NCBI GenBank assembly: GCA_008632985.1
Contig: QPGO01000009.1
Coordinates: 806,001-854,945 of the forward strand
Source: Psammoneis japonica
Lineage: Eukaryota
Length of the DNA: 48,945 bases
Reading direction: 5' to 3'
Shown here: positions 1-28,900 of the stretch, one piece after another
Layout: each line of letters opens with the position of its first letter
How positions within the stretch are numbered: the first letter of the stretch is position 1
Translations under genes and position numbers: made by a program
Notes under the pieces: model-generated
What the model was told of the DNA's origin: nothing
The model's input: only the letters and a program-made list of their open reading frames with translations
The model's database searches: none

Positions 1-3000
1 GTGCTTGCCGAATTTGTGGAGCGCGATCCGGACCATTGTCTGAGCAAGAAATTCACGCAGCTCTGGGAGAACGACGTGTGCTCTTCCCCAGGCCCCTGTG
101 TCCCTCCAGCTCTAGAAGACCTCGAGTCCCACTTCGACACCTGTGATTCAGAGGAAGCCCTCGGCCCGCTCCCGACCGAGCCGAGCCACTGCTTTGACAC
201 GGTTGAGGAGCTCTCTCCGGACTATTTTCGTTTCGACGAGCTGTCCACCAAGTTTGGTTTCGTGGACACCACTCCATGGCAAGACCCTGTGAAGCTTCTC
301 CAGGCAGCTGCTGACGGAACCGAAGCCCATCCCACTCATACCTCTGTGCAGGTGTTGACGGGCCAACGTTCTTCAGCACAACTCGCCGCCGACCCGCAAG
401 CTTTGCTGAGTCTAGCACATGAGCGCCACACCGTCACATGCGACACTGGCGCATCCTCAGCCATTGCTTACGATGAAAACGACTTTATCGGACCTCTGAC
501 GATCCCTGATGGCCCATTGAAGCTTGGGGGTCTAGCAAATGGCTTAACCATCGCCGGCATCGGACCCGTCTCCTGGGTTTTCCATGACGAGGACGGCTCT
601 GAGCTCGTCGTCAAGACGATGGCGTGCCATGTACCTCAGGCCGGACAACGTCTTCTATCCCCACAACGCCTCTACAGCAAGGAACATGGCGTGACAGGAA
701 AACATGAGGGAGACGAGGACTCATTTCGAGTGCATGTTGATGGCGTCGGTTCGCTCAAGGTCGCGTGCGCGTCAAATCACTTGCCGGTTGCGTCTGTGAC
801 CAACGGGGTGGCACCCGCTCCTCAAGTCAATCTGTCTGTGTTGCACGAGGACAACCAGAACCTCACCACCGGTCAGAAGCTCCTTCAAGAATGGCACTTC
901 AGGTTTGGTCACCTGAACATGCCACGCATCCAAGGCCTGCTTCGGGCCGAACCTTTTCTCCGACCCAAATTCAAGCATGCTTCGCGTTGCGACATTCCGC
1001 GGTGCGAGGTGTGCGAACATGCCAAAGGACATCGCCGAACCCTCAAGTCTGCCAAACATGCGGCTACTCCAGAGCGTGAGGGTGCTCTTCGAGCCGAGCA
1101 TCTACGTCCAGGCCAAGCCGTCAGCGTGGATCACTTCGAATCCCGTCTCCTCGGCCGAACCTGCGACTCCTGCGGGAAGGCCTCGTCCCAGCAATGCAAA
1201 GGAGGCTGCATTTTTGTGGATCATGCCTCCGGTTACCTGCGTGTTGAACACCAACTCGGTTTCTCTGCTGTGGAAACGGTGCGAGCGAAGCAAGCGTTTG
1301 AAAAGCACGCGATGGACCACGGCGTCATCATCCAGGAATTTCTTGCCGATTCTGGCGCTTTCAAGGCCAACACTTTTGTGCAACACATGCGACAGCACGA
1401 ACAACGTCTACGTTTTTGCGGAACCAACGCCCACCATCAGAACGGCATCGCAGAACGCGGCATTCGCTCCGTCTCCAACATGGCGAGAGCGATGCTCCTC
1501 CACGCATCCATCCGTTGGAAGGGGGGCANNNNNNNNNNNNNNNNNNNNNNNNNNNNNNNNNNNNNNNNNNNNNNNNNNNNNNNNNNNNNNNNNNNNNNNN
1601 NNNNNNNNNNNNNNNNNNNNNNNNNNNNNNNNNNNNNNNNNNNNNNNNNNNNNNNNNNNNNNNNNNNNNNNNNNNNNNNNNNNNNNNNNNNNNNNNNNNN
1701 NNNNNNNNNNNNNNNNNNNNNNNNNNNNNNNNNNNNNNNNNNNNNNNNNNNNNNNNNNNNNNNNNNNNNNNNNNNNNNNNNNNNNNNNNNNNNNNNNNNN
1801 NNNNNNNNNNNNNNNNNNNNNNNNNNNNNNNNNNNNNNNNNNNNNNNNNNNNNNNNNNNNNNNNNNNNNNNNNNNNNNNNNNNNNNNNNNNNNNNNNNNN
1901 NNNNNNNNNNNNNNNNNNNNNNNNNNNNNNNNNNNNNNNNNNNNNNNNNNNNNNNNNNNNNNNNNNNNNNNNNNNNNNNNNNNNNNNNNNNNNNNNNNNN
2001 NNNNNNNNNNNNNNNNNNNNNNNNNNNNNNNNNNNNNNNNNNNNNNNNNNNNNNNNNNNNNNNNNNNNNNNNNNNNNNNNNNNNNNNNNNNNNNNNNNNN
2101 NNNNNNNNNNNNNNNNNNNNNNNNNNNNNNNNNNNNNNNNNNNNNNNNNNNNNNNNNNNNNNNNNNNNNNNNNNNNNNNNNNNNNNNNNNNNNNNNNNNN
2201 NNNNNNNNNNNNNNNNNNNNNNNNNNNNNNNNNNNNNNNNNNNNNNNNNNNNNNNNNNNNNNNNNNNNNNNNNNNNNNNNNNNNNNNNNNNNNNNNNNNN
2301 NNNNNNNNNNNNNNNNNNNNNNNNNNNNNNNNNNNNNNNNNNNNNNNNNNNNNNNNNNNNNNNNNNNNNNNNNNNNNNNNNNNNNNNNNNNNNNNNNNNN
2401 NNNNNNNNNNNNNNNNNNNNNNNNNNNNNNNNNNNNNNNNNNNNNNNNNNNNNNNNNNNNNNNNNNNNNNNNNNNNNNNNNNNNNNNNNNNNNNNNNNNN
2501 NNNNNNNNNNNNNNNNNNNNNNNNNNNTGAAAATCGAAATTGACGCGCCACTCCACCGACGTGCATGGGAAATGGTGCCAAGAACGGCAGACATGAATGT
2601 GCCACCCGGCACATGGGCTTTCAAACTCAAACGACTCCCGGATGGCACGCCCTTGAAATGCAAGGCACGACATTGCGTTCGCGGCGATTTGCAGAAACAC
2701 GGGATCGATTTTTTCGAGACCTGCGCGCCGGCAGTGCAATGGTCGTCCATGCGCCTTCTCCTCACCACGGCACTCAAGGAAGGTTGGGCTGCACGTCAAG
2801 TGGACTGTGCCACAGCCTTCTGCCAAGCTGACATCAAGGAGAAGGTCCATGTAGAGCCTCCCAAGGGTTTCCAACCAAAATCGGGCGCCGATCTGGTGCC
2901 AAAATTGTTGAAAGGCCCACATGGCCTACGCCAGTCTCCCAAGTGCTTCTGTGAAAAGCTGAGGGACGGATTGCTCGAAAGAGGATGGATTCAATCCGCC

Positions 3001-4134
3001 ATTGACCCTTGTCTTTATTTCAAAAAGGGCATGTTGTGTGTGGCACATGTTGATGATGCCGTGTTCGCCGGCGCATCGGCCCAAGCCTTGGAAGCAGAGA
3101 TTGCCAAGTTGGGCATTTCCAACGATGAGCAACGCCATGTCTTTGATCTACGTGATGAAGGCGAAGTCGGCAACTTTCCAGGTGTCAAGATTCAAAAGCT
3201 CGAAGACGGCCGATTCCTCCTGACCCAACCCGGCCTAATTGAGAAAGTTCTCCGAACCGCACAGATGACTGAGTGCAACGGCGCACCCACTCCTGCCTTG
3301 CCTGCTCCTGCTGGCAGCGATGCCGACGGGCCACCGTTCGAAGAGCCTCATGACTGCCGTTCCGTGGTCGGCATGCTGATGTGTCTAGCGTCCAACAGCC
3401 GCCCGGACATTGCTTGCATGACCCATCAAGTCGCACGGTTCTCCTGCGCACCCAAGGCCTCCCACGCTGCGGCCATCAAGCGCATTCTTCGTCACCTGAA
3501 GGATGNNNNNNNNNNNNNNNNNNNNNNNNNNNNNNNNNNNNNNNNNNNNNNNNNNNNNNNNNNNNNNNNNNNNNNNNNNNNNNNNNNNNNNNNNNNNNNN
3601 NNNNNNNNNNNNNNNNNNNNNNNNNNNNNNNNNNNNNNNNNNNNNNNNNNNNNNNNNNNNNNNNNNNNNNNNNNNNNNNNNNNNNNNNNNNNNNNNNNNN
3701 NNNNNNNNNNNNNNNNNNNNNNNNNNNNNNNNNNNNNNNNNNNNNNNNNNNNNNNNNNNNNNNNNNNNNNNNNNNNNNNNNNNNNNNNNNNNNNNNNNNN
3801 NNNNNNNNNNNNNNNNNNNNNNNNNNNNNNNNNNNNNNNNNNNNNNNNNNNNNNNNNNNNNNNNNNNNNNNNNNNNNNNNNNNNNNNNNNNNACCTCCCA
3901 GCATCCGTTGTGTACGAAGACAATGCTGCCTGCCTCCAACTCGCCCGTGTGCCAAAATTGTCCCCACGAACCAAGCACATCGGCATTCCCCACCATTGGT
4001 TTCGTACTAAAGTTGAGGCTTTGGAGATCAAAATTGAGCCTGTGAGCTCAGCTGCACAGCTTGCTGACCAGTTTGCTAAAGGATTGACTGTTGATCTGTT
4101 CCGCACTGGCCGCAAAGCCCTCATGGGCTGGTGA
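1..4134 (+). mobile_element. Ty1/copia (CoDi-like) LTR retrotransposon pol: protease, GAG-pre-integrase, integrase, RT, RNase H; 5'-truncated by the window, gapped, and degenerate through TpA mutation
   Basis: Copia domain order: CDTGAS protease; WHFRFGH...CEVC zinc motif; integrase VSVD...DSG...QNGIAER; RT KARHCVRG, HGLRQSP, HVDD, RPDIA; RNase H EDNAAC...RTKHI...QLADQFAKGL. Confidence 0.95.
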
Positions 4135-4160
4135 CTGACAGTTCTCCTTCTCTTTTCGGT

Positions 4161-4432
4161 TGAGAGGGAGAGTCACGAGTCAACAACCGAGTCTGATTCA
4201 CGGATGACGCTCCCGGTCATGGATCTCTTCTTCCGGAAGAAATGTCCGTTGAGTCTTCTAGCGACAGCAATCGGAGTGACACACACGACCGTCAGGTCAT
4301 GATGTCATCTCCAATCCCTCGTGAGATCTTCTCACAATTCGCATCTTTAGCGTATCTTATTGTCCCAAAAAAACCTACTTCTTATCATCCTCTGTTGTAT
4401 TGTACAACCTCAAGAGAGTCCTGAACTCTCCA
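4161..4432 (+). repeat. Polypurine tract (TGAGAGGGAG, 4161-4170) followed by the probable 3' LTR; right end approximate
   Basis: Purine run 27 nt after the pol stop. The 5' LTR is outside the window, so the end cannot be confirmed. Confidence 0.55.
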
Positions 4433-6608: not shown

Positions 6609-8678
6609 TCACACAGACATGGCCTCATTCAGCTCATTTACAGCCACGGCCACATCCTGCGCTTTCGTCACGGCGCCAATGACAGCCACACAATCGGCTC
6701 CAGCATGCTTGACAAAGGATGCCGTTTCGGCATTCCCAATTCCTCCAATGGCAACAAATGGCATGTCGGGTGGTATCAATTGTCTCCATTTCGTAACCGT
6801 CTCCAAACCCTGTGGATCAAATGCCACGTTTTTACTCGCCGTCCCAAACACGGGACCCATGCTAATGTAAGATGGTTTCACTCCGAGTGCAACCGCCAGC
6901 TCTCCATAGGAATGTGTCGAAATACCTAGAGCCATGTTGTTTTCTTTCATGGTTTCCAAACCTCCTTTTTGAATGCACTTGTACAAGTCTTCTTGACCCA
7001 AATGAACACCAAAGCAACCGGCTTGACAAGCCGCATCCCAATGATCATTGATCCACAATCGGACATTGCTCTTGCCGCAAATGTCTTGACATTTTCGAAC
7101 CCGTTCCAGTATTTGTTGCGGATCGTTGGTGTCTTTGAAACGCAATTGAATATCTGTCACGCCCTCTGTCGCAGCCAAACGCTCTACCCATTCGACCGTG
7201 TCGACAATGGGAAGAATGCGGCCCAAACACAAAGCATTGTCGTTATTGTTGGTGCTACTACTCCAAGGAGACATGGGACGAAACGGCGCTGTGGCAGCAT
7301 CAGAAGAAGCTGTTGGATCCATTACAATGGAAGGAAAGTACCGAAAGGAGGACGGGAATTCTGTATGAATAACTGGTCCAGGACCTTGGCCAATCTGCAA
7401 CATACAATAAAGAAAGAGAAAAGCGTTTGGCGACGGCGTTCAGTATTGTTATGGCACAAGACAGGCAATACACTACTAGTACTTACACCACCTCCAACCT
7501 CAATACCCTTTGTCACATAGGCCTTGGCCAAGCAACAAGCATCTACTGAAAAGATTGCACTCGTGGCTCCACTACTACCACTACTACTACTACTACCATT
7601 GCTTCGTGCAGCGTGGCCAAGCGCCAGTGAGCAAGCAATAGCGGACGACAAGGTACAACCCGTCCCATGAGTATGCTCTGTATCGTAGCTACAATGGAAA
7701 AAGGAAGGGCGGAGGAGAATAAGTATGAGCATCATGAATTGACCCACATTAATGATAATCAACGATTTGACGTACCGATTGGTCCGAAGCCATACACCCA
7801 AATGCCCATCACACAATCGTTCTTCTTCATCATCATTCGAAGGTTTTGTCGAAAGAAAATAGTCTTGAGCATATCCCAAGGTCACCTTTACACCTTCTGA
7901 CGCTTCTGCATTATTATTTGTGGAGGATTCCGTCAAGGTATGACCGCCCTTGATGAGAACGGCCTTGACACCCATGGCAAGCATGTCGCGTGCGCCTACA
8001 TTACGCGAAAATAGCACGTTAGTTTTTATGGTCAACCCCAAACCACAGAAGACGATCAAACAGGAACACCACTTGTATATACTCGTACTCACCTTTTTCA
8101 ACATCTTGTGGTGTTTGCAATTTTCGGTCCAATAGAGCTTCGGCTTCAAATTTGTTGGGTGTCAAAATATCGACATATGGAAAGATTTGGTCCATCATGG
8201 CTTGTTTGGTTTCATCATTGATGAGTTTGTGCCCCGAAGTGGAAATCATGACGGGATCCAAAACGATAAAGGGCCGGTCTTTTCGAGACACTTGCTCCTT
8301 GACAAAGGCACCTACAGCCTCTGCCAATTCTCGTGTACCCAACATTCCAATCTTGATGGCTCGTGGCGGCATGTCACTCGAGAGTGTGTTTAGTTGCGTC
8401 GTGAGAAATGTAGCGGGAGGAGTGTGAACGTCCGTCACGCCCACTGAATTTTGAGCCGTAAGACAGGTAATGGCCGAACATCCGTGTCCTCCCATGGCAT
8501 GAATGGCATGCAAATCGGCTTGGATTCCAGCGCCTCCACCCGAATCCGATCCGGCAATCGTGTACACAACGGGAGGCGGTGATGATGATGCTAATGCGTG
8601 GCACGGGGAGGACGTCATGGTCAATAGTTGTAGAGCAGTAATGCAAGCAGTAAACCAAGGATGAAGCATAGAAAGCAT
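6609..8678 (-). CDS. TH1: Bifunctional HMP-P kinase / thiamine-phosphate synthase (ThiD-ThiE fusion), 4 exons
   Basis: IAGSDSGGGAGIQAD, LDPVM, TPNKFEA, LIKGGH, HGTGCTLSSA (ThiD); QLRFK, INDHW, GVHLGQED, GISTH, VAIGGI (ThiE). Introns 7996-8092, 7689-7775 and 7395-7486 are all GT-AG and keep frame; N-terminal signal peptide. Confidence 0.95.
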
Positions 8679-9097
8679 GTGATATCGACAGGCTGCCCTT
8701 GCTTGGAAGGCCTCGCTCTACCTACTTCTGTTTCACAGCAACGACCGACGACCGGAGTTGTGGCGATGATGTGTGCGATGTTGCCGTTTTCATGGTGCGA
8801 TCCGGGTGATCCGGGAAGCCGCAGACCGATCGCGCGCCCGCGCAACAAAAATGAGGATGACGTCATCGTTCACAACTCGTGATTGAAACAATTCCATTCA
8901 CGTTTCTTCCCGTGTCAAAATCTTCCGCGAAAAAGATCTCCATCTTCACAACCTCCTGACTTGGAACAGGAAGAAACAAAGGATCGCCGTCAACTTGTCA
9001 ATACGGTACAAAAGAGAGAGCTAAAGTTCGAATATCCCCACTCAAGTGCTCTCCGTTCCGACTACTACAACTGTAGAGGAAAACAGATTCGTCCAAG

Positions 9098-10686
9098 ATG
9101 ACATCATCTGAAAAACAAGGAGCTCCGTTACCCGCCTCGCACACGGTACGTTGGATACTGGTTGCGACTGGAATGCTCCAAATCACCTTGGGCGCTGGTT
9201 TGGTGGTTGGATGGGCTGGAATTGCGGGTTCCATCTTGACAGCAACACGAGTCAGTGGTGGAGCGGGTCTCACCTTGGATGAAACCACAACCTTGTACGG
9301 CTTTGCGGCAGCTTCCAATTACTTGTCACCCATTTTCTTGGGAGCCATTTTAGATCACCGTGGGCCTCGAACAGCGTCCTTTGTGTCCAATGCCCTCGTG
9401 GCGGTCGGGTGTTTGTTGTTTGGTCAAGCAACCACTTTTCGGCAATTTGCGGTAGCAATTTCCATGGTGGCGTTTGGTGGACCGGGTGTGCAGACGTCAG
9501 TTATTCATACAGCCAATCTCTTTCCGGCCAATCGATATTTTGTCATGGGACTTGTCGGTGAATGTATTACACTCAGTTTTGCCGTTTTCCCATTGATGGA
9601 TGTGATTTGGCAAACCTATGACGTGGATTTTGAAACGCTCTTTTACGGACAGGCAATCTTGGTGGCACTTTCGGCCATTACCTCGTTGTGCATCTGGCCC
9701 GACACACCGTATGAACACGTTCATGTTGAAGAAGAAAATAAGACGGCCGACGCTGGAGAAACCGAAAGCGAGAAATTGCTATCCTCAGTCAAGGAAAAAA
9801 CAGATCCACCACTTCAGGAACAGTCGCTCATCAAACAACTCACCAGCGGAGCTTACATTCGGCTCAGTATATTCTTTCTTGTCACCTCCTTTTATGCCAA
9901 TCTTTACATTGCCACGGTGACGACAGAGGTAAGTGTATGTGTTGAGAACCAACTTGCTTTATCATTACTTGTCATCTCATACCTACTATTCACGTTTCGT
10001 AATTCGAACAGCTTGGAGACACACAACAGTTTACTTTTGAAACTCAGCATCAATTGGCAAGCACGCTGAGCTTTATTGATGCCGCCGCCATTCTCTGCGC
10101 TCCACTATCCGGATACTTGTTGGATTCGGTCGGTTTTGGCGCGGCAGCCGTGGTTGCAATTTCCTTGGGTATGGGACAAATGATTCTCCTCTTGGTAGCC
10201 AACATGGACATGTTGGATTCTTCCTACGACAGTCCCGATTTTCCCTTCATCATGGCAATCATGATTGCCAGCTTTATCTGTTATGCAGCATTTCGAGCCT
10301 TTTTGTTTCCTTACTTTTTTGCCAATCTATCCAGAAAACTGGGATTTCGCTTTTTTGGCATCTTGTCGGGATTATCCTTTTGTGCGTCTGGACTTTGTCA
10401 ATTGGCCATTGCGCCTCTCTCCAAGTTGGTAGACGGAGAATGCCACCACATCATGGACAATACGTTTGAAGAGTACCACAATGAAGACTGCGATCAAGGA
10501 AATTGGAAGCTGTTGCACGTCATTCAGTTGGTGAATTTGGCATTGCTCTTTCTTATCCCCTACTTTGATACACGCTCAAGTTCCATTGCTGCGGCCGAGG
10601 AAAAGACTCTTCAAAACACCGACTCTGAATATGGATCCACGAGCAGTACGGACGGAGACGGTGTGATTGGAGTTCAAGTGTACTAG
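9098..10686 (+). CDS. MFS transporter, SLC43/LAT3-FMP42-like, 2 exons
   Basis: About 12 hydrophobic segments and MFS motif A (GAILDHRGPR; GYLLDSVG). Intron 9929-10011 (GTAAGT..CAG) joins two ORFs in frame. Confidence 0.85.
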
Positions 10687-10963
10687 TATATAGTACGCAA
10701 CTTCAGTTAATTTTGTACATACTACACACGCGACATGAATTCATACTAAGGAGACAACGAGCTCTGTTGGTCTGTTGGATTTGAGCGAGGGGAAGACAAC
10801 GATCGCGGTTGACGGGATGCAGGGTTTTTCACAGACCAGAGATATCATAAATCAATGTTTTACCATGACGACTTTGAGCGTTGCAGTGATGTGAAGATTT
10901 GCGCCACGAATCAAACCCTTGCGTGGTTTTCAATCCGAACAAAACTCAATCTTTTCCAAATTT

Positions 10964-11127
10964 CTAACACGTGACTTGGCATAACGTGTTAAGGAGTAGC
11001 TGTGCTTTCCACCGATTCACTAGCCCTATGCCCCCCGTCTATTGAGCAGTTGTTGTCCATGTAGCAAGCTCTTGTAAACTGATAGAAGTCGAGAAATTGG
11101 CGATTCTGAACCAGCGGTAGAGTTTGA
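10964..11127 (-). pseudogene. Truncated 3' fragment of the gene at 16699-17736
   Basis: Aligns to 16699-16864 with a 5-nt deletion and a 3-nt insertion; TpA sites are retained. Confidence 0.9.
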
Positions 11128-11250
11128 AATCGACCGAAACGACCGGTGCTCATCATATACTCTAGAGTAGGTCTATCGTTGGATCCTTGTAGGATTAAAT
11201 CATGAACGACCGCAAGCTACCTACACGGCACCTCCTATCTCGGCATCAAG

Positions 11251-16476: not shown

Positions 16477-16698
16477 AGTTAATTTTGTACAGTACATACA
16501 ACATGAACTCACACTATATTATGATGACAACGAGCTCTGTTTCGATTGAGCGATGGGAAAATAACGATCGCGGTGAACTATCACTGGCCCGAGACATACT
16601 AAAACAAGGTTACCGCGAACACTTTTTAGCATTGCAGTGATGTGTTTGCACCACGAATGCTTTCGTTGATTTAGATGTCGAACATTAATCAATCCGTT

Positions 16699-17736
16699 TT
16701 AACACGTGACTTGGCATAACGTGTTGAGTAGTAGCTGTGCTTTCCACCGATTCACATACCTAGCCCTATGTCCCCCGTCCGTTGAGCAGTTGTCCATGTA
16801 GCAAGCTCTTGTTAACTGATAAAAGTCGAGAAATGGGCGATTCTTGACCAGCGGTAGAGTTTGATGGTAAGCTTGTCCGTTCCTGCCAACATCAGGCCGG
16901 TATTCTTCGGGTACTTTTTGCTTTTGATAACACGGCATAGAGTTGAATACAACGTTTGGCGCGCTGTCAAGGAACGCTTTGATTTCGTGAGAAAATCTCG
17001 TAATGTTGCTTTTAAGCGACCCTAATATGTGAATGCCAGCACCCACTATTGCCGCGAAGCTGGTCTTGTTTTGTAAAATGGAATTGATGCAGTTCGAGCA
17101 CTCGAGATGAAATAACGATCCCCCCTGTCCGTAGCATTCAGCGCTGCAAACATAGCCCACTGCGGGATATGACTTGTTTTGCTGCCAATGATCGTGAAGG
17201 GCCTGCATGGATAGTTTCAGAACCTCTCGTCTATGGGAAGCATTCATTATTTCTTCATTGCTAGGATTCTCCAACAGAATGTCAATCAGTCCGATATAAA
17301 GTTGAATGTTGTAGCTGTCTCCAGATACCGCTACTCGAATATCTTTGTTTGATGAGAGGCAGTCGATGGCTTCTTGGGAGGAAAAAAGATGAAGCCTCGA
17401 CCTAAATACCTTGTCGGTCGGCAAGCAAATGCCCTCGTTTAACGCTGCTAGTTGTATCGTGTCGAGATGTTTGTAACTGTTGCAGTAAAAATCGTCCATT
17501 GCTCTATATTGCTTGCTTCTGATTGTTGTGGACCAACGACAAGCAGCATCTACTCCATACGGAAGGAATCTGTGCGGAAACGGAACGAATGTTGACGTGA
17601 CATTCGTGACATTCTTGTTCTGTATTTTTGATTGATTCACCGCGTTCGTTTGACTTGATTGAAAACGAAGAATATATCCTCCCAAGCAAACAGCAGTCAC
17701 ACTATAGATCAAGGCTTGTTTTGCTACCTTTCGCAT
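16699..17736 (-). CDS. Type II membrane SGNH/PC-esterase (TBL/NXPE-like) acyltransferase or esterase
   Basis: N-terminal TM anchor (MRKVAKQALIYSVTAVCLGGYIL), GDS motif (VSGDSY), C-terminal DxxH (TDGGH). Confidence 0.7.
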   Translation of the reverse strand: MRKVAKQALIYSVTAVCLGGYILRFQSSQTNAVNQSKIQNKNVTNVTSTFVPFPHRFLPYGVDAACRWSTTIRSKQYRAMDDFYCNSYKHLDTIQLAALNEGICLPTDKVFRSRLHLFSSQEAIDCLSSNKDIRVAVSGDSYNIQLYIGLIDILLENPSNEEIMNASHRREVLKLSMQALHDHWQQNKSYPAVGYVCSAECYGQGGSLFHLECSNCINSILQNKTSFAAIVGAGIHILGSLKSNITRFSHEIKAFLDSAPNVVFNSMPCYQKQKVPEEYRPDVGRNGQAYHQTLPLVKNRPFLDFYQLTRACYMDNCSTDGGHRARYVNRWKAQLLLNTLCQVTC

Positions 17737-18059
17737 TTCACTACCGTCGGTATTATTTGTTTGCAGGTTGCAACAACAGCAATGACATAACAACGCGATC
17801 GCAAGACTGAGAGCTTCCTCTCTGCTTTTGGCGAAATGAAATCGCGAAAAAACCAATAATTTCAAATTTTCCACCGCGCTCGCGCTCACATTGCCCTGAC
17901 GACGACTCGGTGTCGCGCGAACGTGCCGCTCTCGCGAAAGCGCGCGCGCGGCGACAAGGCACCGCACGCACGACATCACACACATCACCGGTCGAGGTTC
18001 GAGGTTCGAGGTGCAATCTACTCTCTAGCGCAGCAACCTTGGCGATCTTTTTGCAGGAG

Positions 18060-19900
18060 AGAACGACAAGGATGGTGATTGTTTGTTCCAATGAAGAATC
18101 CTTTCATCAAACAACAACACTGCTGTGTGTGGCTCTAAACTGGCTGCACAATCTTCAAGTCTCAACATCGCCTCAAAGTGGGGGTTCAACAGCAAAGTCA
18201 ATCTGCTTGATGAATTCACTCAAATGCCAAAGCAACAGAGTGGAGGAAATCTGCCTTTGCTGACACCATCTATCCTCACATGCACAAATGATTGTCAACA
18301 TGCAGCAATGCCTGTGTTGGAACACTGACACAGCACAACAAGAAGCAACAAATTGTTCCCCCCTCCCCCGCCAAAGTGTGCGGACCTTCAAACCCCCATC
18401 AGATCATTTGGCTTTCCCAAAATTGATTTTGGGCACATGGACAATGCTTCTGTTCTTCTTTGTCTTCTTCACTGTTGACAAACATGACGTTGAGCCAGAC
18501 CTGCAATCGCCCGGGAGCATTGCGGGCCAGACCTCGATTGACCAGGAACTCTGCTGTGGTCGAGTGGCACACGTTTGGCTTTGCTGACCCCAAACTCACT
18601 GTGTGGCTTGCAACCACCCCAATGCTGCTGACTGCTGTTGCCATGTCAGCTGGGTGCAGAAGCTAAAAAGTGAGCGGAAAACCCGCATCTCAGCCTGAGT
18701 TGTGAGCGCAACTTTGCCACATTGTCCACAATCGTCGGCACATCTTGCACTGCAACATTGTCTGTCTGTCCTGTGAAAACTGCCTCTGACCCTGATGTTC
18801 CAACAGTCACCTTTCCAACAGAGGTTGTCTGCTGCACTTGCTGAGATGAGAAGAGGAAAGGCAACTCTGGGCTGCAACTGTTGCAACCTCAGTTTTGGAG
18901 CATGCTTTTTCTGCAATTTGGTGCAGTGATCCAAAACTTGCAAGCACTGTGATCTGACCTGTCTGTGCAATTTGTTCTGTTGTCTGGGAGCTTCCTGCAG
19001 CACTTGTGGCACACCAGCCAAGGGGCTGAGGGTCACAGAGAGACAGGCTTGTCTTCTTTCACAAGTTGCTCCAGCACCAAAATGGATCTTCTTGCAAAAG
19101 CTTGTTGGGAGATGCTCAATTTGAGCTGCAGTCAATGACATCACATGGCCAGAAAGCTCAGCAGCAAAACTCTCACATCCTCCTGGCACCAGCAATCCAC
19201 CCCCAATCATTTGTGCAGACCGCTGGCCAAAAAGCACTGGCAAAAAAGTGGAGTCTCTGCTGCAATGCTTGCCCCAGTCAATTGGGAAGCTCCAGATCAG
19301 GCAGTGAGCCAATGCCGCACCTTTGGAAGAGTCCAGCAGAGCCCAAGATTTGCCCAGCTGGCAAAGACCTTTGCTGTTGCAAGAAACTCAAAAGCCCCAG
19401 TTTGTCTGCATTGCAGAGAATCCAAAGATGGCACTGATCTTGTTTTGTGCTGCACAGCCCTCTTGGATCAAAAGAGGCCTGGACTTTGAAATGATGGCTT
19501 GCCAGCCAACTGGCTCAGCATCCCTTTCTGTGTAGGGGGGTTGTGCAGTCACTTCAATCATGCCATGATGAACAGGGCACACCTGCACCCACTTCCAATT
19601 GTTGTCCACAGGCACAAGCAACCCATCCAACCACACCCATCTTGCCAGATGGTTCACCAGGCCAATGGAGTCAGTTCAAGCAGAGGAGACTGATTTCAAA
19701 AGACATTGGCCAGAGGCAGTTGCAGTGGAAATGCAAGCTGTGGCCCTTCTGGATGCTGATTGAAATGCTTCGTCAAGACAATGGTGAAGGGTTACTTCAG
19801 TTGTGCAGTGTGTCAATCGCCCCACAACTCTGCGTGCGACAATGTGCATGACATGTGTTGCTGACGTTCTGCTCCCATCCATGTGGTCCTGGATTGAAAG
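18060..19900. other. TpA/CpG-depleted hypermutated block 2; original identity unrecognisable
   Basis: Same dinucleotide signature; abrupt return of TA at about 19920. Confidence 0.8.
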
Positions 19901-20279
19901 GAAAAAACAGGATGCGTTTCTAGGCAGCAGCTCGTCGCCGATAAAATTTAAAAGTGTCTGAAATACGGTACAATCATGGGCTCAAGGTACAACGTAGACA
20001 TTGCCAGTTTGGTCTTTTGCCTGTTGTTTGAGTTGTGTATCTTTGGAAGAAGTGCCGGCAGTAGAGGTTAGCAAATTGAAAAAGAGGACTGGTTAACCCA
20101 CAGCCAAGAGGAAGCGAACTGCTCAATAAACGCATGGTCTAAGAACATCAAAAGATGCTTGCCGCCAAATAATCAACACGCACTACATGAAGAATAAAAC
20201 TGATAAGGAAGCATGCAGAAACCAATGTGATACAAAAGCGGTACACCCCTCGAGCAAACAAGTTGTCAAAGTTGCGCTT

Positions 20280-22685
20280 TCACATTTTAATTTCCCGCAG
20301 CATAGTGGTGCCGTGCTTGATGTCCAATCGCTGACCTCCAAAGGGATAGCCATCGAGTCGCTTGACTTCAAAAATATATCCTGGTTTCTGGTAGGAAACA
20401 TACATTCGCATGTTGTCGGGAGAAAAAGCCAAACCAGTTACTTCGCCAGCTAGCTCAGGTCTGTGACCGAAGTTTTCGAGAATAGTGAAATAATTTCCAT
20501 TGCTGTCTCGACCGTGCACTCCACAGTCCTGGCCATTTGGTCCCGTTTCTTCGCAAAAATAAAGGATTGCATCACTTTCATTCCCCCCGAGGACTCTCGC
20601 TACTTGATCGGGGCTTCCATTGAATGCTCCTTGTTTTGTTGATTCTCGGATGTAGGTGCCTCTGTTGGTATCCAAAATGAATAAATGAGCATTCCTTTTG
20701 CAGGTAAAGTAGACAATGCCATTTCTAAAGTCGATGCCTTCACATTGGGAATATTCCTGAAACGCGTTCTTGCGAGCTGCTTTCAAATCCTCGGTCCATA
20801 AAAAGGTACCTTCTTTGCTAGCTTTCTTCTTGTTGGGCCGAAGTACAAGGAACTCGGTTCTTGCAGTGCCGGTTTCATTGGAGTGCAAAAGCCGCGAAAA
20901 ATCGTTGCTTTTCAATGCTTTTGATGTCACCTCACTGTCCGGTGTGAACTTGAGAACAGGCCCGCGTTTATTGTCGGTGGTGACGTAAAAGATTGGTCTT
21001 TCAGGCTTCCGATTATCGTAAGCAGCAGACTCATACGTGTCTCCACCCTTGACTCCGATGATAGTCTTTCTTGGTGGGTGCTTTCCGAATGGGTCTACCT
21101 CCCAAATCTGTCCGCCTTCTATTTCTTCACAGGAAAGCCAAGTCGACCAGAATGTGGCGCCCCCACCGCAATTTCTCTGGCTTCCAGACAGCAGCCTCTC
21201 ATAGCCAATGACTTTACCTCGAGCATCGAATTCAATTGCACCCACACCTCCTGTTATTCTGCTTTCCGCATTGGACACGTACTTCCAACCACCCGTCTGT
21301 TTATTCGCAAATACGGCGGCACCATCTGCAGCTGGGTGAAATCTTATTTTGGACAGTTTTCCATTGTGCTCCAGCTTGACTGGCTGATGCTTCGTGGCAA
21401 TGAGACGGGCCGTCAGACCAGTGGAGAGCAATAGGCCTTCTTCTACGTGGGAGAGCTTGCCAGGCACATACGTTACCGGCTTGTCCTTTGGTGGAACAGA
21501 GCAATAATCAATACCGGAAACACCAACGGCTGCACACCCCGGGATCCTGTGATCTGTTGTCCTGGAAAAACAAATTAATCCCCGCTTGCATTTATCATTG
21601 CTGCCGGCGCAATCCCCTTGACACTTTGAGCAAGGTGCGGCAACGGTGCATCGGCTAGTATTGTCGAGACGACTGATTGAATCAACATTGTCTTTTTCAT
21701 CTTTTGGCTTCTTGCTGCTATTTTCTTTCTCTGTGCCTGTTCTTTTGTCCTTGATACAATAGGATCCGCCAAAAATACCTTGGCCGGTACAACCACGAAC
21801 GCTTTCACTGGATTGACGTTTGAAACATCGAAGTCCCTTTTTGCAATGACTGTCCAGGAGGCATTCTCCTTCACACTCTGCAAGCAGCGCTTGTCCTCCT
21901 CGGCGCACTTGACTTTTTTCCACAACACGAACCAAGGTGTTTGAAACAGTGGGAACGGTGCAATAATTGACACCAAGTATACCGTTGCCACGACAATCAG
22001 GAACTGCTTGATTTCCGATTCGTCGGAAACAAATTAGTCCTAGGCTGCAGAACGCATCTCCAGCACAGTGTCCTTGGCACTTTCTCAGAGGGAAAGCCGA
22101 TTCGGGTACACCGTTGACTCCACGTCTCACTAGAACACCCTTAAGGGGCTTGAAACAGTAACTGCGCGACGTTTTATCGTTTCCACTACAGCCTGGTACT
22201 GGCTGACCTCCTTGTCTCCTGAAACAGTTCAAGCCAAATCTACAGTCTTCATGACCGGAGCAGCGCCCCTGGCAAAGACCAAGAGGACGGGCCTCTGATG
22301 ATTTCACGACAGTTAGTGGATGCATTGGCTTAGCTTTCACATTCTTCAATGACTTTAAAAGCGGTGGAGGCTTCTCTGTGGCACTAGTGTTTCGTACAGG
22401 GTATGAACAAAAGTTTCGTCCCAAACCGTTGTTTCCAACAACTTTACATCCCGGCACACCTTGCTCTGCACCATTGTAGGATAGACACGAAAGTCCTACG
22501 TGGCAGTCTTTACTTGTTCGACAATGCCCTTGACATGGACCAAGTGGAAAACGAAACGGATGTGTTTCATGTCTTCCGACAAACTGCAAGGCCGTATCCT
22601 CCTCGGAAGCAACAGCAACCGTCGTTGGCAGATGGAGGGACACAGACACAGCAGCGACAAGCAACAGTGATGGGATGACCTTCAT
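20280..22685 (-). CDS. Secreted PhoX-type (DUF839) alkaline phosphatase with five N-terminal frustulin-ACR-like Cys repeats
   Basis: Signal peptide MKVIPSLLLVAAVSVSL. Repeats C[QE]G.C....C..GL.CF.R....VPGC.G....YC. PhoX motifs DGAAVF, YVSNAE, RNCGGGATFWSTWLSCEE, ESAA, EGI, PDQ, EVTGLAFSPD...YVSYQ. Confidence 0.88.
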   Translation of the reverse strand: MKVIPSLLLVAAVSVSLHLPTTVAVASEEDTALQFVGRHETHPFRFPLGPCQGHCRTSKDCHVGLSCLSYNGAEQGVPGCKVVGNNGLGRNFCSYPVRNTSATEKPPPLLKSLKNVKAKPMHPLTVVKSSEARPLGLCQGRCSGHEDCRFGLNCFRRQGGQPVPGCSGNDKTSRSYCFKPLKGVLVRRGVNGVPESAFPLRKCQGHCAGDAFCSLGLICFRRIGNQAVPDCRGNGILGVNYCTVPTVSNTLVRVVEKSQVRRGGQALLAECEGECLLDSHCKKGLRCFKRQSSESVRGCTGQGIFGGSYCIKDKRTGTEKENSSKKPKDEKDNVDSISRLDNTSRCTVAAPCSKCQGDCAGSNDKCKRGLICFSRTTDHRIPGCAAVGVSGIDYCSVPPKDKPVTYVPGKLSHVEEGLLLSTGLTARLIATKHQPVKLEHNGKLSKIRFHPAADGAAVFANKQTGGWKYVSNAESRITGGVGAIEFDARGKVIGYERLLSGSQRNCGGGATFWSTWLSCEEIEGGQIWEVDPFGKHPPRKTIIGVKGGDTYESAAYDNRKPERPIFYVTTDNKRGPVLKFTPDSEVTSKALKSNDFSRLLHSNETGTARTEFLVLRPNKKKASKEGTFLWTEDLKAARKNAFQEYSQCEGIDFRNGIVYFTCKRNAHLFILDTNRGTYIRESTKQGAFNGSPDQVARVLGGNESDAILYFCEETGPNGQDCGVHGRDSNGNYFTILENFGHRPELAGEVTGLAFSPDNMRMYVSYQKPGYIFEVKRLDGYPFGGQRLDIKHGTTMLREIKM

Positions 22686-23179
22686 CCTCGTGCTGAACAG
22701 CTGAACAGCCGTAAATGTAGGTCGTTTCGAAGAGCGAAAAGCAGGGAATTTGTACTGTAATGGATTCCTTTTATCGCCCATGTCAATATCCGGGAATGGT
22801 GTGAACTCCAAACTGTGAACTGAGCAACGTAGACTTCAGAATAAGGCGACAAGGAGGGTCCAAAACAAACCATAGAGTCGAGACGAGGAGGCCGCCTAAA
22901 TTACCCTGATGAGAAAAAAGGAAAGAAAGGATTGTCGTGATGTGATGTTGTTTTGAAAATGATTACAAATAATGTCATATAGCCCAGAAATGTCTCAGAT
23001 CAGAGCAAGACAATTGACATTTTATAATGAATCGACAAAAGACATTTTCCAGAAATAGGGAATCCTAAGTAAACAGTCAGTGAATCGCTGAACCCAGCCA
23101 CATGCGGTCTTCGAGATGTTGAGGGCAATTGATTTCTGCTGAACCAAAAGTGGTGAATTGAACCGGGCCGGAGCCTCCT

Positions 23180-26100
23180 CCTCACACATCTTTCTGCTTT
23201 GTCATGCACTGTGCCGGCATTTCCTGCGCTGCACAGTGATCACAGCACAGCATTTGAAATCACAACGTCACGCATGGCCACCCAATGCTAACAGCAAAGA
23301 TCCACAGAAGACGGACGCCAAAAGAACAACACGCACAAAAAAACATCACAAACCAGCCACTCGTGCATCATGGTGGGCATCACGGCATCACGGCACTTCT
23401 CTGTTGCGCCACGTGGCAAGGCAGAGGTGCTCTTCCTCCTCCAACCCCCACCTCTTGCTCTGGAAAGCAGCTTGCCCCTTTTCAACTGGACATGTGCTGC
23501 AAGAGCAGGAAAACCCTGGCTCTCTCAGCTCTTGCGCTGCTTTGTTGGAAAAGGGGGCAACCCAACCCTGCTTGGCAAAGCTTGGAGCTTTTGCGGGATT
23601 TTTTGCTGCACAAACCCGTGGCATGGTGCTCCCCATGCAATGCAGCTGCCTGCACTAAACAATGGTTGCAGGCTGCTTTTGCATCACCAAACACGTTGAG
23701 AAAGGCACGCCTTTGTGCAACAAGCATTGAGGCCGCAGGCAGCGCATCGCACTGTTGAGATGCACGGCGCACACTGCCCGGTGCACAATGCCCAGTGCAC
23801 AATGCCCGGCTTGCTCCAAGCCAGCTCTGGAGGTGAGGCCTCACACTGCTGCACTGTGGCATCTTAGTGATTTTTGGCAATGTGCCACGTGCACATTTCC
23901 ACATGCAATCTTGCACAAAGTTGTTTCGCGCTCCCCGTTTTGCAAAGCTGCCAAAAGCCAAAGGCTTTTTTCACAATTTTGTGGGGTTTAAAACACTGGC
24001 TGGGTGCAGTCTTTGGTGCCTTTGAAGAGTGCAGCAAGGCAAAGTAGAAATGCAAAGTGGAAATGATGCACTTCAAGCATCAAGGAGTTTTTTTCTGTTC
24101 ACAAAATTGCCTGTTTTCTGAGCTTGTGCCTGGAGTTCTGTGACCGAACGGGGCTGGAGAGCATGTTGTCACACACTGTGATGCCACACAACATTTTTAC
24201 AGTTGCTCTTCTGCCAGCCACACCTCAGGGTGCCCCAGTGATGGGCAGAAAGAGCAGCACACAAAGGGTGGTGTGTTGGCAGATGGAACAATGACCCCAA
24301 CAACCTTGTTGTGCAGTGCTCTGTGTCATCTTTTTCTCTGCTCATGCAAGGACTCATGGAACAAGGGCTGCTTCATTGCATTGAGGAGTGCACAGAGTGC
24401 ATGAAAGTGTGTGTTGATGGAGGGCTGGGTGGTTGTTTTTTGGCACACACACATGACCCATGTTCTCATTGCAGTGGTGGTGTCGCCACATTGCCTGCTG
24501 TGAAGGACACGGCAACAACATTTCAGAAAAACAGCTGCCATGCTGTGAAAGGTGCTTGCCACATTTTTCCCAGTGATTTGCACAAAGTTTGATCTTCATC
24601 TCAGAGCTCCAATGATCCCTTGCATTTCCAGGCATTTGCAAAGCTCTTCTGTCCTGTGACCTGCTGTTTCTTTGAAGTGTGGAGCACTCTTTGTCAACAG
24701 CAGCAAACTTTATGACCAACTTGTTTGTCAGGGTTGGTGAGTTTCAGCCCAATGCTCTCAGCATCCAAGCAAAAAGAAAAGCCAAAAAGAAGAAGAAAAA
24801 AGGCATGTGGTGCAAAGTTGTGACACACCTCATTGCAGCACATCATGCTCCATTGCATGACATTTTTTGTGTTGAGCATTTTTGATGCTTGCTCAACAAC
24901 ATGTGTGTTGCACTCTGCACTGCTTGGCAACCAGCACATCACATTGTGCAGCACTCCACTGTGTCTTCTTGCAGCACAACATTTTGCAACATTTTGTGGT
25001 GTGACATCCTTGGTGACTGCCAAATTGCACTTGCACCATGACACCAAAACCTGACCATCTCAGGTGCAATCAGACACAAAGCACAATTTGGTGGCCTTTG
25101 ACTCACCTGGGTCACAACCCTTGATTGCTTGTGCAACATTTTTGTGGCCCTTTCAAGGCACCATGTCAAATGTTGCACAGACCCTCCCAGGGTTTCCAAA
25201 AAATTCTTCATGCTGTGCATGGTTTTGAAGTCAGGGTCTCTTTTGGCACCCACCTGGAAAGCAACACAGCCATCCAATGCCCTTTGCCCTGATGCTTTGG
25301 AGTGGCCATCAAAGACATTTGTGACATTCTTGCCACCACCACTGCAATCCTCCTCCTTTGCTTTGTTGTTGTTCTGGTGCATGAGATGCAACGCAATGGC
25401 ACATCACAACAGCGCCACAACAGAGCAACAGGACAGCTGTTTTTTCACCTTCTGTTTCTCACTGCTGTCCTGTTGCACTGGAACACTGCCCTCATCAAAT
25501 TGCTGTCCTCTGATTTCTTGCCATTTGTCATTGAAAACATTGTCCTTGTTGACACTGCTCTCCTGGTCATTGCTGTGGTTGCAATCACTCTGCTTCTTGA
25601 CTGTGCTTGTCTTTTGTCACTTCATCACCCATGTTTGGCACAAACAACAGAGAACATGAAAGAATGTAGCATTGCATGCTGCAGCGCAGCAGCATGTTCT
25701 TGCCTTCTCAATGCCCTTGTTGCTGCTGTCAGTTTTGCACCTCTTTGTGTCCCTTGTTGCTCTCACTTTGACAGGTTGCTCACCCTTTGCTTGCACTTCT
25801 TGCTGGCTTTGTTTTTCACTTCTGGCATGTGATGGGTGCAAACAGCAGCACATTGTGTCACACTTTAGCACTCAACATTGTGCTGTGCAAACACATGCAC
25901 AACATCTGATGTGATGTCACACAATTTCACACCTCTTCAGCAATGCTCTCAACACTCCTCTCATCACTGCTGCTGTTGCTGTCACACAAGAGACTCTCCA
26001 CTTGTTTTTCCTGCTGCTCAATGTGCTTGCATTGCTTGCCACAACTCTGGTGGCAGCTGGCGAGAGTGGAGGCTTTTTCAATGGCTTTGCTTTCCCCACA

Positions 26101-28900
26101 TTTTCAATTGAAGCCCAAGGCAGGCAAAAGAGAGCTGGGGGGTTGGAGCACCCTCCTCCAGCATGGCAGTGACCACAAAAGGTTTTTTGCCCTGCTGCAC
26201 CTGCAGCCATGGTGATGCACTCAGCTCCTCCACTGACAGCAGCCTTCAGCTTGGCTTTCTCCTGCTTTGCTGAGGCTGTCATCACACTTGATTGCACAAG
26301 AATGATGCACAGCTCAGAGCTGCTCTGAGTTTGTGGTGGTTGGCTAAGAACTCTGATTGTGCAGTGGTTGTTTCTCTGTCTGCACCAGCATGCAGAGAAC
26401 AGGTGCAGTGCACATCAGCAAAAGTGTGACCATGGTGAACTTTGATGAAGTGGGACATCTGGCACTTGGCAGGGTGCCCTGCACTGCTCAAGGGCCAGTG
26501 GCATTGTTTTCCTTTTTTTTGCATGTGGCATCATCTTCAATGTGATGTCACATTTTTGTTGAGCAACCACATCACATCTTCCAAGTTGGCTGTGCCAAAC
26601 CACTGAATCACCACCTGAAGCTGTGTTGTTTTATCCCCTCTGCTTTCAACTGGGGCTGGACCTTCTTTTGTTGGAGCTTCTTTGCCATTCATTGGATTCG
26701 GGTGTGCCAGGCTGCCATTGGCTGCCAACTGCCAGGCTGGGGTTGGCCAGCAGCACTGAAGTGGCAGACACAAGCCTTTGTCCCATGACCACCAGGAGCT
26801 CCCAAAGATTTGCTCAAGGACTTGCACCCCAAGTGTTGCAGAATCCACGAGCAATGGCGGCAGAGGTGGGTCCTGGCATGCACACCCCTGAAGTTGCCCA
26901 TGGCTGTCCCCGTGCAAATCCCAAAACAAGAAGGAAGAAAGACCCCGTGAGAGAGCCCAGCTGCACTTGTGTGTCAATGCAGCCTGCCCCCCAAGTGTGG
27001 AACATGAGATTTGTTGGAAAAACAGGGTTGTTTGGAGTGGGGCAACCCCACCCACCAATGACAGACAGTTCTCCATGCAACATGACCTTCTTGGTCCCAC
27101 ACACTCCAGCACTGAGAGACAAGCCACAGCCCCCTCACTGGGAAGCAGACAGCTGGCACCCCCCTGCAAGAATCCCCATCATGTGAGAGACAGCCTCCCA
27201 AAAAAGGTTGAGGCCCCAAGGCCAAATCAAGGGAGGTTGTTGCTCCAGATGCTTGACCAACTTCAGACTGGGGGATGCACATGAAAGTCAACCTTTGCTG
27301 GGGCTGAAACAGCTGTGGTGCAATGTCCCACCAAAAGGTGATGACTTGGAATTGTCAAGGTGCACTGAGACATGCTGCCCACTCCCAACAGTTGAAGAGA
27401 AAGTGGTCAAAGTGGGCAGGGGGGCAAAACAGATGAGGAGACACCACACTCCATGAAAGGTTGAGAGCTTTTGACCATGAATGACATCCCTCAGGCTGTG
27501 GTGGCTGGAGGACAACTCTGCCACCCTCTCTGCCCCCCCCCCCCCCCCGCCTCCTTTCACATCAGGTGCTTTGTCTCCTTCAACTCACTCCACTGGCAAT
27601 CTCAGTGTGAGCATGCTGTCTCCTTGAGCCTGGGCATTGGCTGGCCCACCAGCCTCTGAAACAGGGGCATTTCCCAGCTTTTTGGCAAGAGCTCCAACAG
27701 CAGTTTGCCGCTGGGCAACAACTTTAAGAGGTGAGCTCAGCCACAATGTCCTGAGCTCAAAGCACAGTCCACAAAATCTGGCTGCAGACAGCACCAAGGT
27801 CCATGCCTTCAATCATTGTGAAGACCCCAGCACAAGCTTTTTCAAGATCCTTGGCAAAGAGGATTGCAGTCAAAGAGCATGTTTGTTTCTCAGGGAACTT
27901 GCACAACCACATCAATGACTTGCAGGCTCTGTCAACACAGGCAAGGGCTTGCATGGGTGCAGCAAACTTGGACAGCACACTGCAAACCACCTGACTTTCA
28001 AAGGTCCCATGATCCAGGGTGTGCAGTGGTTGATCATGTCATCCAAGGTGTTGGATTTGACCACAGCCATCCAACTGAGGATGCAGTGTTTTGTGCCCAC
28101 ACATCCCAAGGACCATTTTTTGTGGGTGAGCAGCTTGTTCAAAAAGGAAGGATGCATGCATGCCACCAACCAAGTGCCCTTTGAAGCACCAGAGTCAAAA
28201 ATCCTTGGCTTGCTGTGCTGGAAAGCTGCCAAAAAGCAAGCATCTTTTCCCCTCAGTCTTGATGTTCAAGACACAAGGGGTGTGCTGCAAAGAAAGGCCC
28301 AACAGCAGCATCAAGTGATGTTGGGGGACAGGCTTGACACCCACAATCCAATCAAACAGGAGGTTTGTGTCTGTTGGACAGCCACCACAACAGACCTTTG
28401 ACAGAAAGCACTGTTTTGAGCCATTTGTTCAGCACGGCACTCATTGAACAACAAATGTCACACCCACGCCAGAGAACTCAATGGCCAATTTCTTGTCTGC
28501 CTCTTGGCCTTGAAGAAATCACCGACCCTGTGCTGCTCCAAATGAGTGTGAACACTCCATGCAAGAACTAAAAAAAAATGCCATCACCTTGTTTGCATGC
28601 TGTTTACGTGCACTTGAGAACGTTCCAGACTTCAACAACTCTCCACATCCAGCTCCAGGCCAGAGGTCAGCTGGCCCCACACAAAGCAAAGCTGGTGGGA
28701 TTGCACAGATCACAAAGTGCCCTGTCCTGTCAAGGCATCCATGTGGTGCTTGTGGGCATCACCCCCCTTGGCTTTGCAGAGGCCTGTGCATTGTCAGTTT
28801 GAACATCACCACCCATCCCACCTCCTGCACTGTGCTTTGCGGTGCTGCACCTTTGCACAGAGCTGCAGTCCAAGCTGTGTTTTGTCAAAGAGTTGCACTC
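23180..28900. other. TpA/CpG-depleted hypermutated block 3 (about 5.7 kb), probably decayed repeats or TE
   Basis: Long runs with no TA or CG; dozens of overlapping Tyr-free ORFs; no domain confidently recognised. Confidence 0.8.

Follow-up and report, generated by a model that had tools for sequence, protein, structure and literature searches.

In a stretch of 48,945 nucleotides from the diatom Psammoneis japonica (assembly GCA_008632985.1, contig QPGO01000009.1, positions 806,001 to 854,945 of the forward strand; hereafter the window), genes of normal composition alternate with tracts in which the dinucleotide TpA has nearly disappeared. The question raised by this locus is what removed TpA from these tracts, among them a copia-type retrotransposon and degenerate copies of an MFS transporter gene, and spared the DNA between them. 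An earlier note, made from the letters alone, had described four TpA-depleted domains and proposed a targeted mutator that converts A:T to G:C pairs in silenced or repeated chromatin. We found that the four domains are real, that their positions had been given correctly to within a few hundred bases, and that the genes and spacers between them are normal. In these domains TpA was converted to TpG or CpA on both DNA strands, and we consider it very probable that a real regional mutational process directed at TpA has acted here. The window belongs to a scaffolded draft, contains three runs of N and has a GC content of approximately 47%.

TpA is lost from four discrete domains of the window

The TpA-poor domains were the copia element (positions 1 to approximately 4340) and three blocks located at 12780–16150 (the core of block 1), 18070–19770 (block 2) and 23100–28430 (block 3). 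The other 32.8 kb of the window served as background, and expected numbers of TA and CG were calculated at the observed/expected ratios (o/e) of this background. The core of block 1 contained 8 TA (135 expected) and 29 CG (184 expected), block 2 contained 4 TA (62 expected) and 17 CG (102 expected), and block 3 contained 12 TA (191 expected) and 47 CG (326 expected). The TpA o/e was 0.03–0.04 in the 10.4 kb of the blocks and 0.58 in the 32.8 kb of other DNA, whereas the CpG o/e was 0.14–0.16, a depletion of approximately 85%, versus 0.97. In 115 1-kb windows outside the TpA-poor domains, which were used as the control of normal composition, the minimum TpA o/e was 0.31 and no CpG o/e fell below 0.64. 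Open reading frame (ORF)-poor stretches elsewhere in the window, such as 39.5–42 kb and 44.5–48 kb, also kept a TpA o/e of 0.65–1.16.

CA and TG were correspondingly frequent in the blocks (o/e of 1.66–1.93, compared with 1.20/1.25 elsewhere), and the GC content was 47–50% compared with 46.5% elsewhere. The CA/TG counts on the + strand were nearly equal in blocks 1, 2 and 3 (377/383, 193/186 and 640/601, respectively), indicating that both DNA strands were hit. As the earlier note had maintained, CA and TG products are found on one strand in the blocks, in the copia element and in the MFS copies. The edges of the blocks lay within about 100–400 bp and adjoined expressed genes. At the left edge of block 3 (23100–23600), TpA was absent and CpG decreased gradually.

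The region 9001–29000 was compared with the contigs of a public run (X1), which may be the source sample of the window itself. All 30 bins of this region were covered by X1 contigs, and a contig of 2176 letters matched block 1 at 13939–16119, from which it differed by 6 letters and 7 gaps. The bases are not a quirk of one assembly; they may still be a property of that sample, given the possible origin of the window from X1.

The copia element has lost its tyrosine codons and kept its reading frame

The first domain is a fragment of a copia-type long terminal repeat (LTR) retrotransposon (1–4340, + strand), in which Pfam recognized gag_pre-integrs and RVT_2. Its ORF (1–4134; 1377 codons) is open through two N gaps, and the density of TA returned to normal at approximately 4340, about 200 bp past the stop codon. 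The piece 1–1528 contained 15 TA (40 expected) and 121 CG (121 expected), and the piece 2528–3505 contained 6 TA (27 expected) and 68 CG (74 expected). The TpA o/e of these pieces was 0.22 and 0.13, the CpG o/e was 0.97 and 0.89, and the GC content was 56–57%.

Tyrosine accounted for 0.7% of 913 residues in the copia ORF; the value in seven other window ORFs was 3.0%. The reverse transcriptase (RT) was aligned with its 119 closest relatives (42–61% identity); the best named relatives came from the diatom Fragilaria crotonensis (57–60%). All nine consensus-Tyr columns, those with Tyr in the majority of the relatives, are now occupied by Cys (TGC/TGT, five columns) or His (CAT/CAC, four columns), and the motif YVDD has become HVDD. 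With a stricter cut-off of 60%, none of eight Tyr columns was kept, compared with 157 of 193 other consensus columns. In a separate set of 140 more distant homologues, none of six Tyr columns was kept (H, H, H, C, C, H), and in the gag-integrase part two Tyr columns now contain Cys and Phe. The Leu-to-Pro changes at consensus-Leu columns of the RT were CCA codons in 5/5 cases, as expected from CTA.

These losses are peculiar to the element. All 119 RT relatives contained 2.0–3.9% Tyr, and in the related copia loci located in metagenomes with a 5-sequence alignment the TpA o/e was 0.53–0.85 in 8/8 cases; low TpA is therefore not a trait of the copia family. Under the genetic code, a change from TpA to TpG or CpA never creates a new stop codon, as TGA can only arise from TAA, itself a stop. 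The dead copia element has therefore kept its 1377-codon frame open.

Five of the 150 library representatives that best matched the copia RT contained less than 1% Tyr (P0142, P0181, P0201, P0228 and P0257). Four of these (P0181, P0201, P0228 and P0257) have His or Cys at at least four of the six Tyr columns, in a pattern that differs in each, and P0257, a copia-type polyprotein of 2061 residues, contains 0.05% Tyr. The same footprint is therefore present in other public assemblies.

Degenerate copies of an MFS gene reveal the direction and the borders of the process

An intact MFS transporter gene (9077–10683, + strand; Pfam MFS_1) with normal TpA lies upstream of block 1. It contains an intron of 83 nt at 9927–10009, where a contig of X2, a second set of contigs that are transcript-like, joins 9926 to 10010 with GT..AG ends. 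Two degenerate copies of this gene occur in tandem on the + strand: copy B (14070–15450), which is wholly within block 1 and shows 72% identity to the intact gene, and copy C (15560–16900), which crosses the edge of block 1 and in which the duplication extends to about 16864–16900. Both copies retain sequence homologous to the intron and are therefore DNA duplicates rather than retrocopies. Changes were polarized pairwise, with the intact gene taken as the ancestral state. Three-way parsimony was also tried and rejected as confounded, since copies B and C share, or acquired in parallel, many changes (34 apparent G>A changes were placed on the lineage of the intact gene).

In copy B, 31 of 35 ancestral TA sites had become TG (20) or CA (11), and four showed other outcomes. 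Of 38 CG sites, 27 had become CA (15) or TG (12), two were kept and nine had other outcomes. Copy C consists of three zones. In zone 1 (15560–16100), TA had changed to TG/CA at 19/21 sites and CG to TG/CA at 15/22, with a transition:transversion ratio of 100:27. The corresponding values were 11/12, 4/15 and 40:22 in zone 2 (16100–16465), and 3/18, 4/24 and 41:44 in zone 3 (16465–16900). The change of TA to TG/CA thus affected 30/33 sites in zones 1 and 2 and 3/18 sites in zone 3 (Fisher p = 1.6e-7). This contrast within one copy indicates a regional process whose limits are not those of the duplication, and the zones also show that the loss of TpA extends approximately 365 bp past the loss of CpG. 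The earlier note had appealed to visible ancestors, and the conversion of TA to TG/CA does hold in the MFS copies and in the copia RT; block 1, however, is the only block with an ancestor in the window.

The preferred target is T-A-Y

Counts of A>G by context were pooled over both strands. In copy B, 52/109 adenines in TpA had changed to G, a value near the ceiling, since a single hit destroys TA. Among the adenines outside TpA, 71/259 had changed before a pyrimidine (Y) and 27/332 before a purine (R; p = 4e-10), whereas outside the block the same figures were 12/159 and 12/195. The enrichment of A>G at TpA over other contexts, predicted by the earlier note, is evident from these numbers. With regard to the preceding base, 36/229 adenines after A had changed, compared with 52/109 after T.

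The few TA that remain are informative in the same respect. In the three blocks, 15/24 residual TA lay in YTAR (background, 16%) and 0/24 in RTAY (background, 31%; p = 2e-9), and the residual TA of the copia element leaned likewise (YTAR, 9/26; p = 0.03). Relative to normal DNA, the trinucleotides TAC, TAT, TAG and TAA occurred in the blocks at 0.01x, 0.04x, 0.08x and 0.13x, and TGC and GCA were raised 2.0–2.2x. The flanking bases predicted the product (TG or CA) in 29/38 cases (p = 0.0017). T-A-Y is thus the preferred target, V-A-Y (V being A, C or G) forms a weaker class, and Y-T-A-R is the context hit least. The blocks also had a lowered ApT (o/e of 0.72–0.78, compared with 0.93) and a raised GpC (1.30–1.45, compared with 0.99), values that fit A>G before pyrimidines in addition to the TpA target. 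This context had been overlooked in the earlier note, as had the loss of CpG in the three blocks but not in the copia element, and the extension of the TpA-poor zone beyond the CpG-poor core.

The blocks fill the space between expressed genes

Each block occupies the entire space between two genes. The 5′ end of a Kelch-repeat gene (11254–12558, − strand; Pfam Kelch families) bounds block 1, an ORF of 441 aa without a Pfam family (16702–18024, − strand) bounds block 2, and a PhoX-type phosphatase gene (20283–22835, − strand; Pfam PhoX) lies between blocks 2 and 3. All three are normal in composition and carry X2 contigs, located at 10872–11961 for the Kelch gene and at 16724–17822 for the ORF; those of the phosphatase gene include a GT..AG joint at 20456/20563. 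The genes of the window consist of single long ORFs, interrupted by few and short introns, and the two GT..AG joints in X2 contigs span 83 and 106 nt. X2 contigs were absent from bins wholly inside the blocks, with little or no cover at the block edges, a gap that is no evidence of silence. No set listed as matching the window is recorded as RNA, and a third set, X3, gave no contig on it. The gene for SAM synthetase lies just outside the stretch compared with X2; its best named relatives are from the diatoms Astrosyne, Nitzschia and Achnanthes (83–88%), and other proteins matched at up to 92%. At the border of block 2, the CpG-dense 5′ end of the 441-aa ORF (17794–18064) abuts the CpG-free block, and TA is absent already from approximately 17860.

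With respect to origin, the copia element is selfish DNA and the MFS remnants are derived from the host, and blocks 2 and 3 have no recognizable origin. No Pfam family was detected in six-frame translations of the blocks with X at stops (18 frames). A tblastn search of all ORFs from the normal regions against the blocks gave MFS matches alone, leaving blocks 2 and 3 without a paralog in the window, and blastn of block against block found no LTR-like pairs. The first 1.3 kb of block 1 (12780–14070) likewise has no recognizable origin and no paralog in the window. The ORF 18599–19387 (− strand) of block 2 had no homologue among 569 candidates. Neither tRNA genes nor Rfam families were detected in the blocks, which contain a single small tandem repeat. 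In block 2, the segment 18339–19005 reached an X1 word depth of 768, compared with about 50–80 elsewhere, and contig joints and loose ends were numerous there; the segment is a multi-copy repeat in that genome.

Several other features of the window were noted. A fused thiamine gene (TMP-TENI and Phos_pyr_kin) of normal composition at 6612–8717 (− strand) was read as three overlapping ORFs, for which introns or frame changes are the probable reason. The DNA is also of normal composition at a direct tandem duplication of approximately 175 bp (40009–40183 and 40181–40352; 78% identity). Inverted repeats of 39–53 bp with 92–97% identity (45521–45609 versus 47422–47474 and 47836–47874; 47472–47510 versus 47799–47837) flank an AT-rich stretch beside an N gap, with a TpA o/e of 0.8–1.16, which may be a terminal-inverted-repeat element of normal TpA.

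The same spectrum has been measured in a chlorarachniophyte

The earlier note knew of no named system with this spectrum. The spectrum has in fact been measured in Bigelowiella natans, in a mutation accumulation study described in the main text of a preprint (Mettrop et al., bioRxiv 10.64898/2026.01.13.699255, April 2026 version). There, two regions of integrated viral DNA received 231 of the 302 new point mutations of the nucleus. Of these 231, 230 were A>G or T>C changes, every one of them at TpA, and the rate in such regions was approximately 1e-7 to 1e-6 per site and generation. The B. natans genome contains 124 clusters that are poor in TpA and rich in CpA and TpG, its TpA-poor coding sequences are enriched for RT and DDE domains, and an ADAT2 homologue was proposed as the candidate enzyme (10.64898/2026.01.13.699255). 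It is the sole matching report that we found in searches of literature listings, in which we met with none of TpA-directed hypermutation in diatoms.

The two cases share, as far as the preprint's main text describes, the conversion of TpA to TpG/CpA on both strands in discrete regions, TpA-poor and CpA+TpG-rich clusters as the long-term trace, an adenine deaminase as the proposed agent, and, among the TpA-poor genes of B. natans, an enrichment of RT and transposase domains. They differ in several respects. B. natans is a chlorarachniophyte and hence a rhizarian, whereas the host here is a diatom, a stramenopile. The targets described in B. natans are inserts of giant viruses and virophages, whereas the identifiable targets in the window are the copia element and remnants of host genes. 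Depletion is near saturation here, with a TpA o/e of 0.03–0.04, compared with 0.45 reported for the nucleocytoplasmic large DNA virus (NCLDV) region of B. natans. The B. natans process is known from new mutations, whereas the process described here is known from its footprint in the DNA alone. The main text of the preprint mentions neither CpG, nor flanking or trinucleotide context, nor diatoms (10.64898/2026.01.13.699255), so that the T-A-Y context, the weaker V-A-Y class and the additional loss of CpG in the cores go beyond what is reported there.

A proposed mutator confined to domains and a slower loss of CpG

The signature, direction, context and borders described above are direct observations, and the following mechanism would account for them. 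A mutator confined to particular domains would act at TpA on both strands and change A:T to G:C, yielding TpG or CpA. Its targets would be DNA lying between expressed genes, namely the copia element, the degenerate MFS copies and two inserts without a recognized origin. T-A-Y would be its best context, V-A-Y a less favorable one and Y-T-A-R the poorest. In the copia element it would turn tyrosines into His or Cys and ruin the active-site motif of the RT, leaving the frame open. In the older cores, a second and slower process, taken to be the deamination of 5-methylcytosine (5mC) in methylated silent DNA, would remove CpG, and both losses together would produce DNA without TA or CG at an unchanged GC content. 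As a whole, we regard this combination, a DNA-level TpA mutator confined to domains together with slower CpG loss in older cores, as the best explanation and as rather probable. The mutator would be directed by a silent chromatin state instead of by homology.

The data suggest that the TpA process is faster than the decay of CpG and separable from it, because the copia element has lost most of its TpA with CpG intact, and because the segment 16100–16465 has lost TA at 11/12 sites but CG at 4/15. Ordinary 5mC decay can explain the loss of CpG in the blocks, which, by analogy with other diatoms, would reflect cytosine methylation: transposable elements of diatoms have been reported to be CpG-methylated, DNMT5a being responsible in Phaeodactylum, and DNMT4 relatives to occur in many diatoms (PMC9998398).

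Adenine deamination, which the earlier note had listed among its candidate mechanisms, is a reasonable chemistry for the TpA process. It is favored by the nearly pure transitions at TA sites (31, compared with four other outcomes, in copy B) and by the preferences of TadA/ADAT enzymes. In the anticodon loop, its native substrate, TadA acts on an A that follows U and precedes C, and early adenine base editors built from TadA showed a preference for Y-A-C; both preferences are compatible with T-A-Y. We would put the chance that adenine deamination is the chemistry slightly short of even, and if it is, the most likely enzyme would be an ADAT2/TadA-like adenine deaminase acting on DNA.

Several observations weigh against this account. 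Copy B also has C>T at 63/448 sites outside CpG, and transversions at 78 of the 910 sites aligned. The blocks are old, and part of their composition may therefore come from general decay. The polarity of the MFS changes depends on the intact gene standing for the ancestor, and copies B and C, which have the same product at 11/16 sites, do not count as independent replicates. No ancestor is visible for blocks 2 and 3, the segment 12780–14070 or the spacer between copies B and C, and depletion there is read by analogy. In 40 listed differences between X1 or X2 contigs and the window (192 others besides), several of them near contig ends, there was no clear excess of changes between TA and TG/CA. 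Finally, the V-A-Y component found here is absent from the main text on B. natans, in which mutations are reported at TpA alone.

Other explanations of the TpA-poor domains

The explanation that survives best next to adenine deamination, although we consider it unlikely, keeps the same regional process and replaces its chemistry, either by a mutagenic thymine modification in silent chromatin, of the 5-hydroxymethyluracil (5hmU) or base-J type, which a TET/JBP-like oxygenase would introduce and which would give T>C at TpA, or by Pol eta-type error-prone repair recruited to the domains. TA is its own reverse complement, so that a thymine-directed process at R-T-A, giving T>C, is indistinguishable by sequence from A>G at T-A-Y. 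Dinoflagellate DNA carries 5hmU preferentially at TpA and TpC, and WA is the preferred context of Pol eta. However, many transversions would be expected from Pol eta, or if a modified T were repaired by excision, and the changes at TA in copy B were almost all transitions (31 versus 4). For Pol eta, which the earlier note had also entertained, the context is a further difficulty: ApA is no hot spot (36/229 after A, compared with 52/109 after T), unlike what WA would require.

A homology-triggered, repeat-induced system like that of fungal repeat-induced point mutation (RIP), with the opposite chemistry, appears still less likely. The domains with an identifiable origin are indeed a retrotransposon and gene duplicates, and a segment of block 2 has about tenfold X1 depth. 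Yet a control pair of duplicates (32802–33304 and 34925–35425; 500 bp, 82% identity) is not hypermutated, with TA kept at 7/10 sites and 47 transitions against 41 transversions, and the duplicated part of copy C at 16465–16900 is untouched while 15560–16465 was hit. The untouched pair and the end of the hit zone within copy C argue against RIP-like triggering by homology. In addition, the window contains no paralog of any part of block 3 or of the approximately 1.3 kb of block 1 that precede copy B, and the large target in B. natans is single-copy according to the preprint (10.64898/2026.01.13.699255). Of the targeted A:T to G:C mutator proposed in the earlier note, the regional and directional parts thus stand, and induction by repeats is not supported.

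To our knowledge, ADAR is known from animals only. ADAR-like A-to-I hyper-editing of double-stranded transcripts, fixed in the genome through reverse transcription, is very improbable for the domains described here: one target is a retrotransposon and ADAR prefers U before the edited A (10.64898/2026.01.13.699255), but the sense strand of the copia element contains both T>C and A>G changes (four His and five Cys at Tyr columns, and five CTA-to-CCA changes), and the MFS copies, with their intron-homologous sequence, are DNA duplicates.

Equally little credence can be given to an absence of targeting, that is, to a neutral mutational equilibrium or to foreign DNA that was already poor in TA and CG on arrival. 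Such an origin would suit blocks 2 and 3, which have no visible ancestor, and the age of the blocks (8.6% transversions in copy B). Against it stand the TpA o/e of 0.65–1.16 in other ORF-poor stretches, the unhit part of copy C, which is of the same age as the hit part, the directional change of host-derived MFS sequence, and the TA-normal relatives of the copia element.

A sequencing or assembly artefact is scarcely credible. The window does come from a scaffolded draft and contains three runs of N, but the blocks recur in X1 contigs (as at 13939–16119), and no known artefact turns Tyr codons into His/Cys yet spares the adjacent genes.

Relation to other mutational and editing systems, and significance

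A domain-confined TpA mutator of the kind favored above resembles fungal RIP in that transitions accumulate regionally, disable mobile or duplicated DNA and leave a dinucleotide footprint. Unlike fungal RIP, which depends on an enzyme of the RID/DNMT4 type, changes C:G to T:A mostly at CpA and leaves DNA rich in AT and in stops, the direction here is A:T to G:C at TpA, GC does not fall, no stops are made, and duplication is neither sufficient for, nor co-extensive with, the hit zone. Decay of 5mC at CpG resembles what is found in the three blocks, where CG has become TG/CA (27/38 sites in copy B), although not in the copia element; unlike such decay, the process described here removes TpA, and the loss of CpG is narrower in extent than that of TpA. 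The earlier note had rejected both RIP and 5mC decay as explanations of the TpA loss, and this is borne out: RIP is contradicted by the GC content of the blocks (47–50% versus 46.5%), by the removal rather than production of TpA, and by the open copia ORF, and 5mC decay cannot remove TpA. Animal APOBEC, which acts on retroelement DNA, and ADAR, which acts on double-stranded RNA and prefers U before the target A, likewise cripple selfish or viral nucleic acids by editing. The edited base here would be A and not C as with APOBEC, and, unlike with ADAR, the substrate would be chromosomal DNA on both strands, without an RNA intermediate.

Tentatively, we propose that diatoms and chlorarachniophytes might share a genome defence in which a TadA/ADAT-derived deaminase, recruited to silent chromatin, edits chromosomal T-A-Y on both strands, faster than and independently of CpG-methylation decay. 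Such a system would kill mobile elements by missense changes (Tyr to His/Cys, Leu to Pro) without creating stops, and "tyrosine-less" ORFs would be left as a fossil that can be searched for.

What is new here is the host group, the retrotransposon and host-gene remnants as targets, the near-saturated depletion, the T-A-Y context and the separation from CpG loss. Natural adenine editing of chromosomal DNA, if true, would stand beside RIP and APOBEC as their A:T counterpart, and has so far been the subject of one preprint on one alga. The present findings would extend the known hosts of the process to the diatoms, which are among the major primary producers of the sea, and would add retrotransposons and dead gene copies to viral inserts as its targets. 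T-A-Y is a sharper motif, which any candidate enzyme must reproduce, and the TpA process is set apart from the decay of methylated CpG. For annotation, such elements seem intact by ORF length and yet are dead; conversely, transposable element proteins with open frames but no tyrosine may offer a cheap tracer for a survey of this process across taxa.

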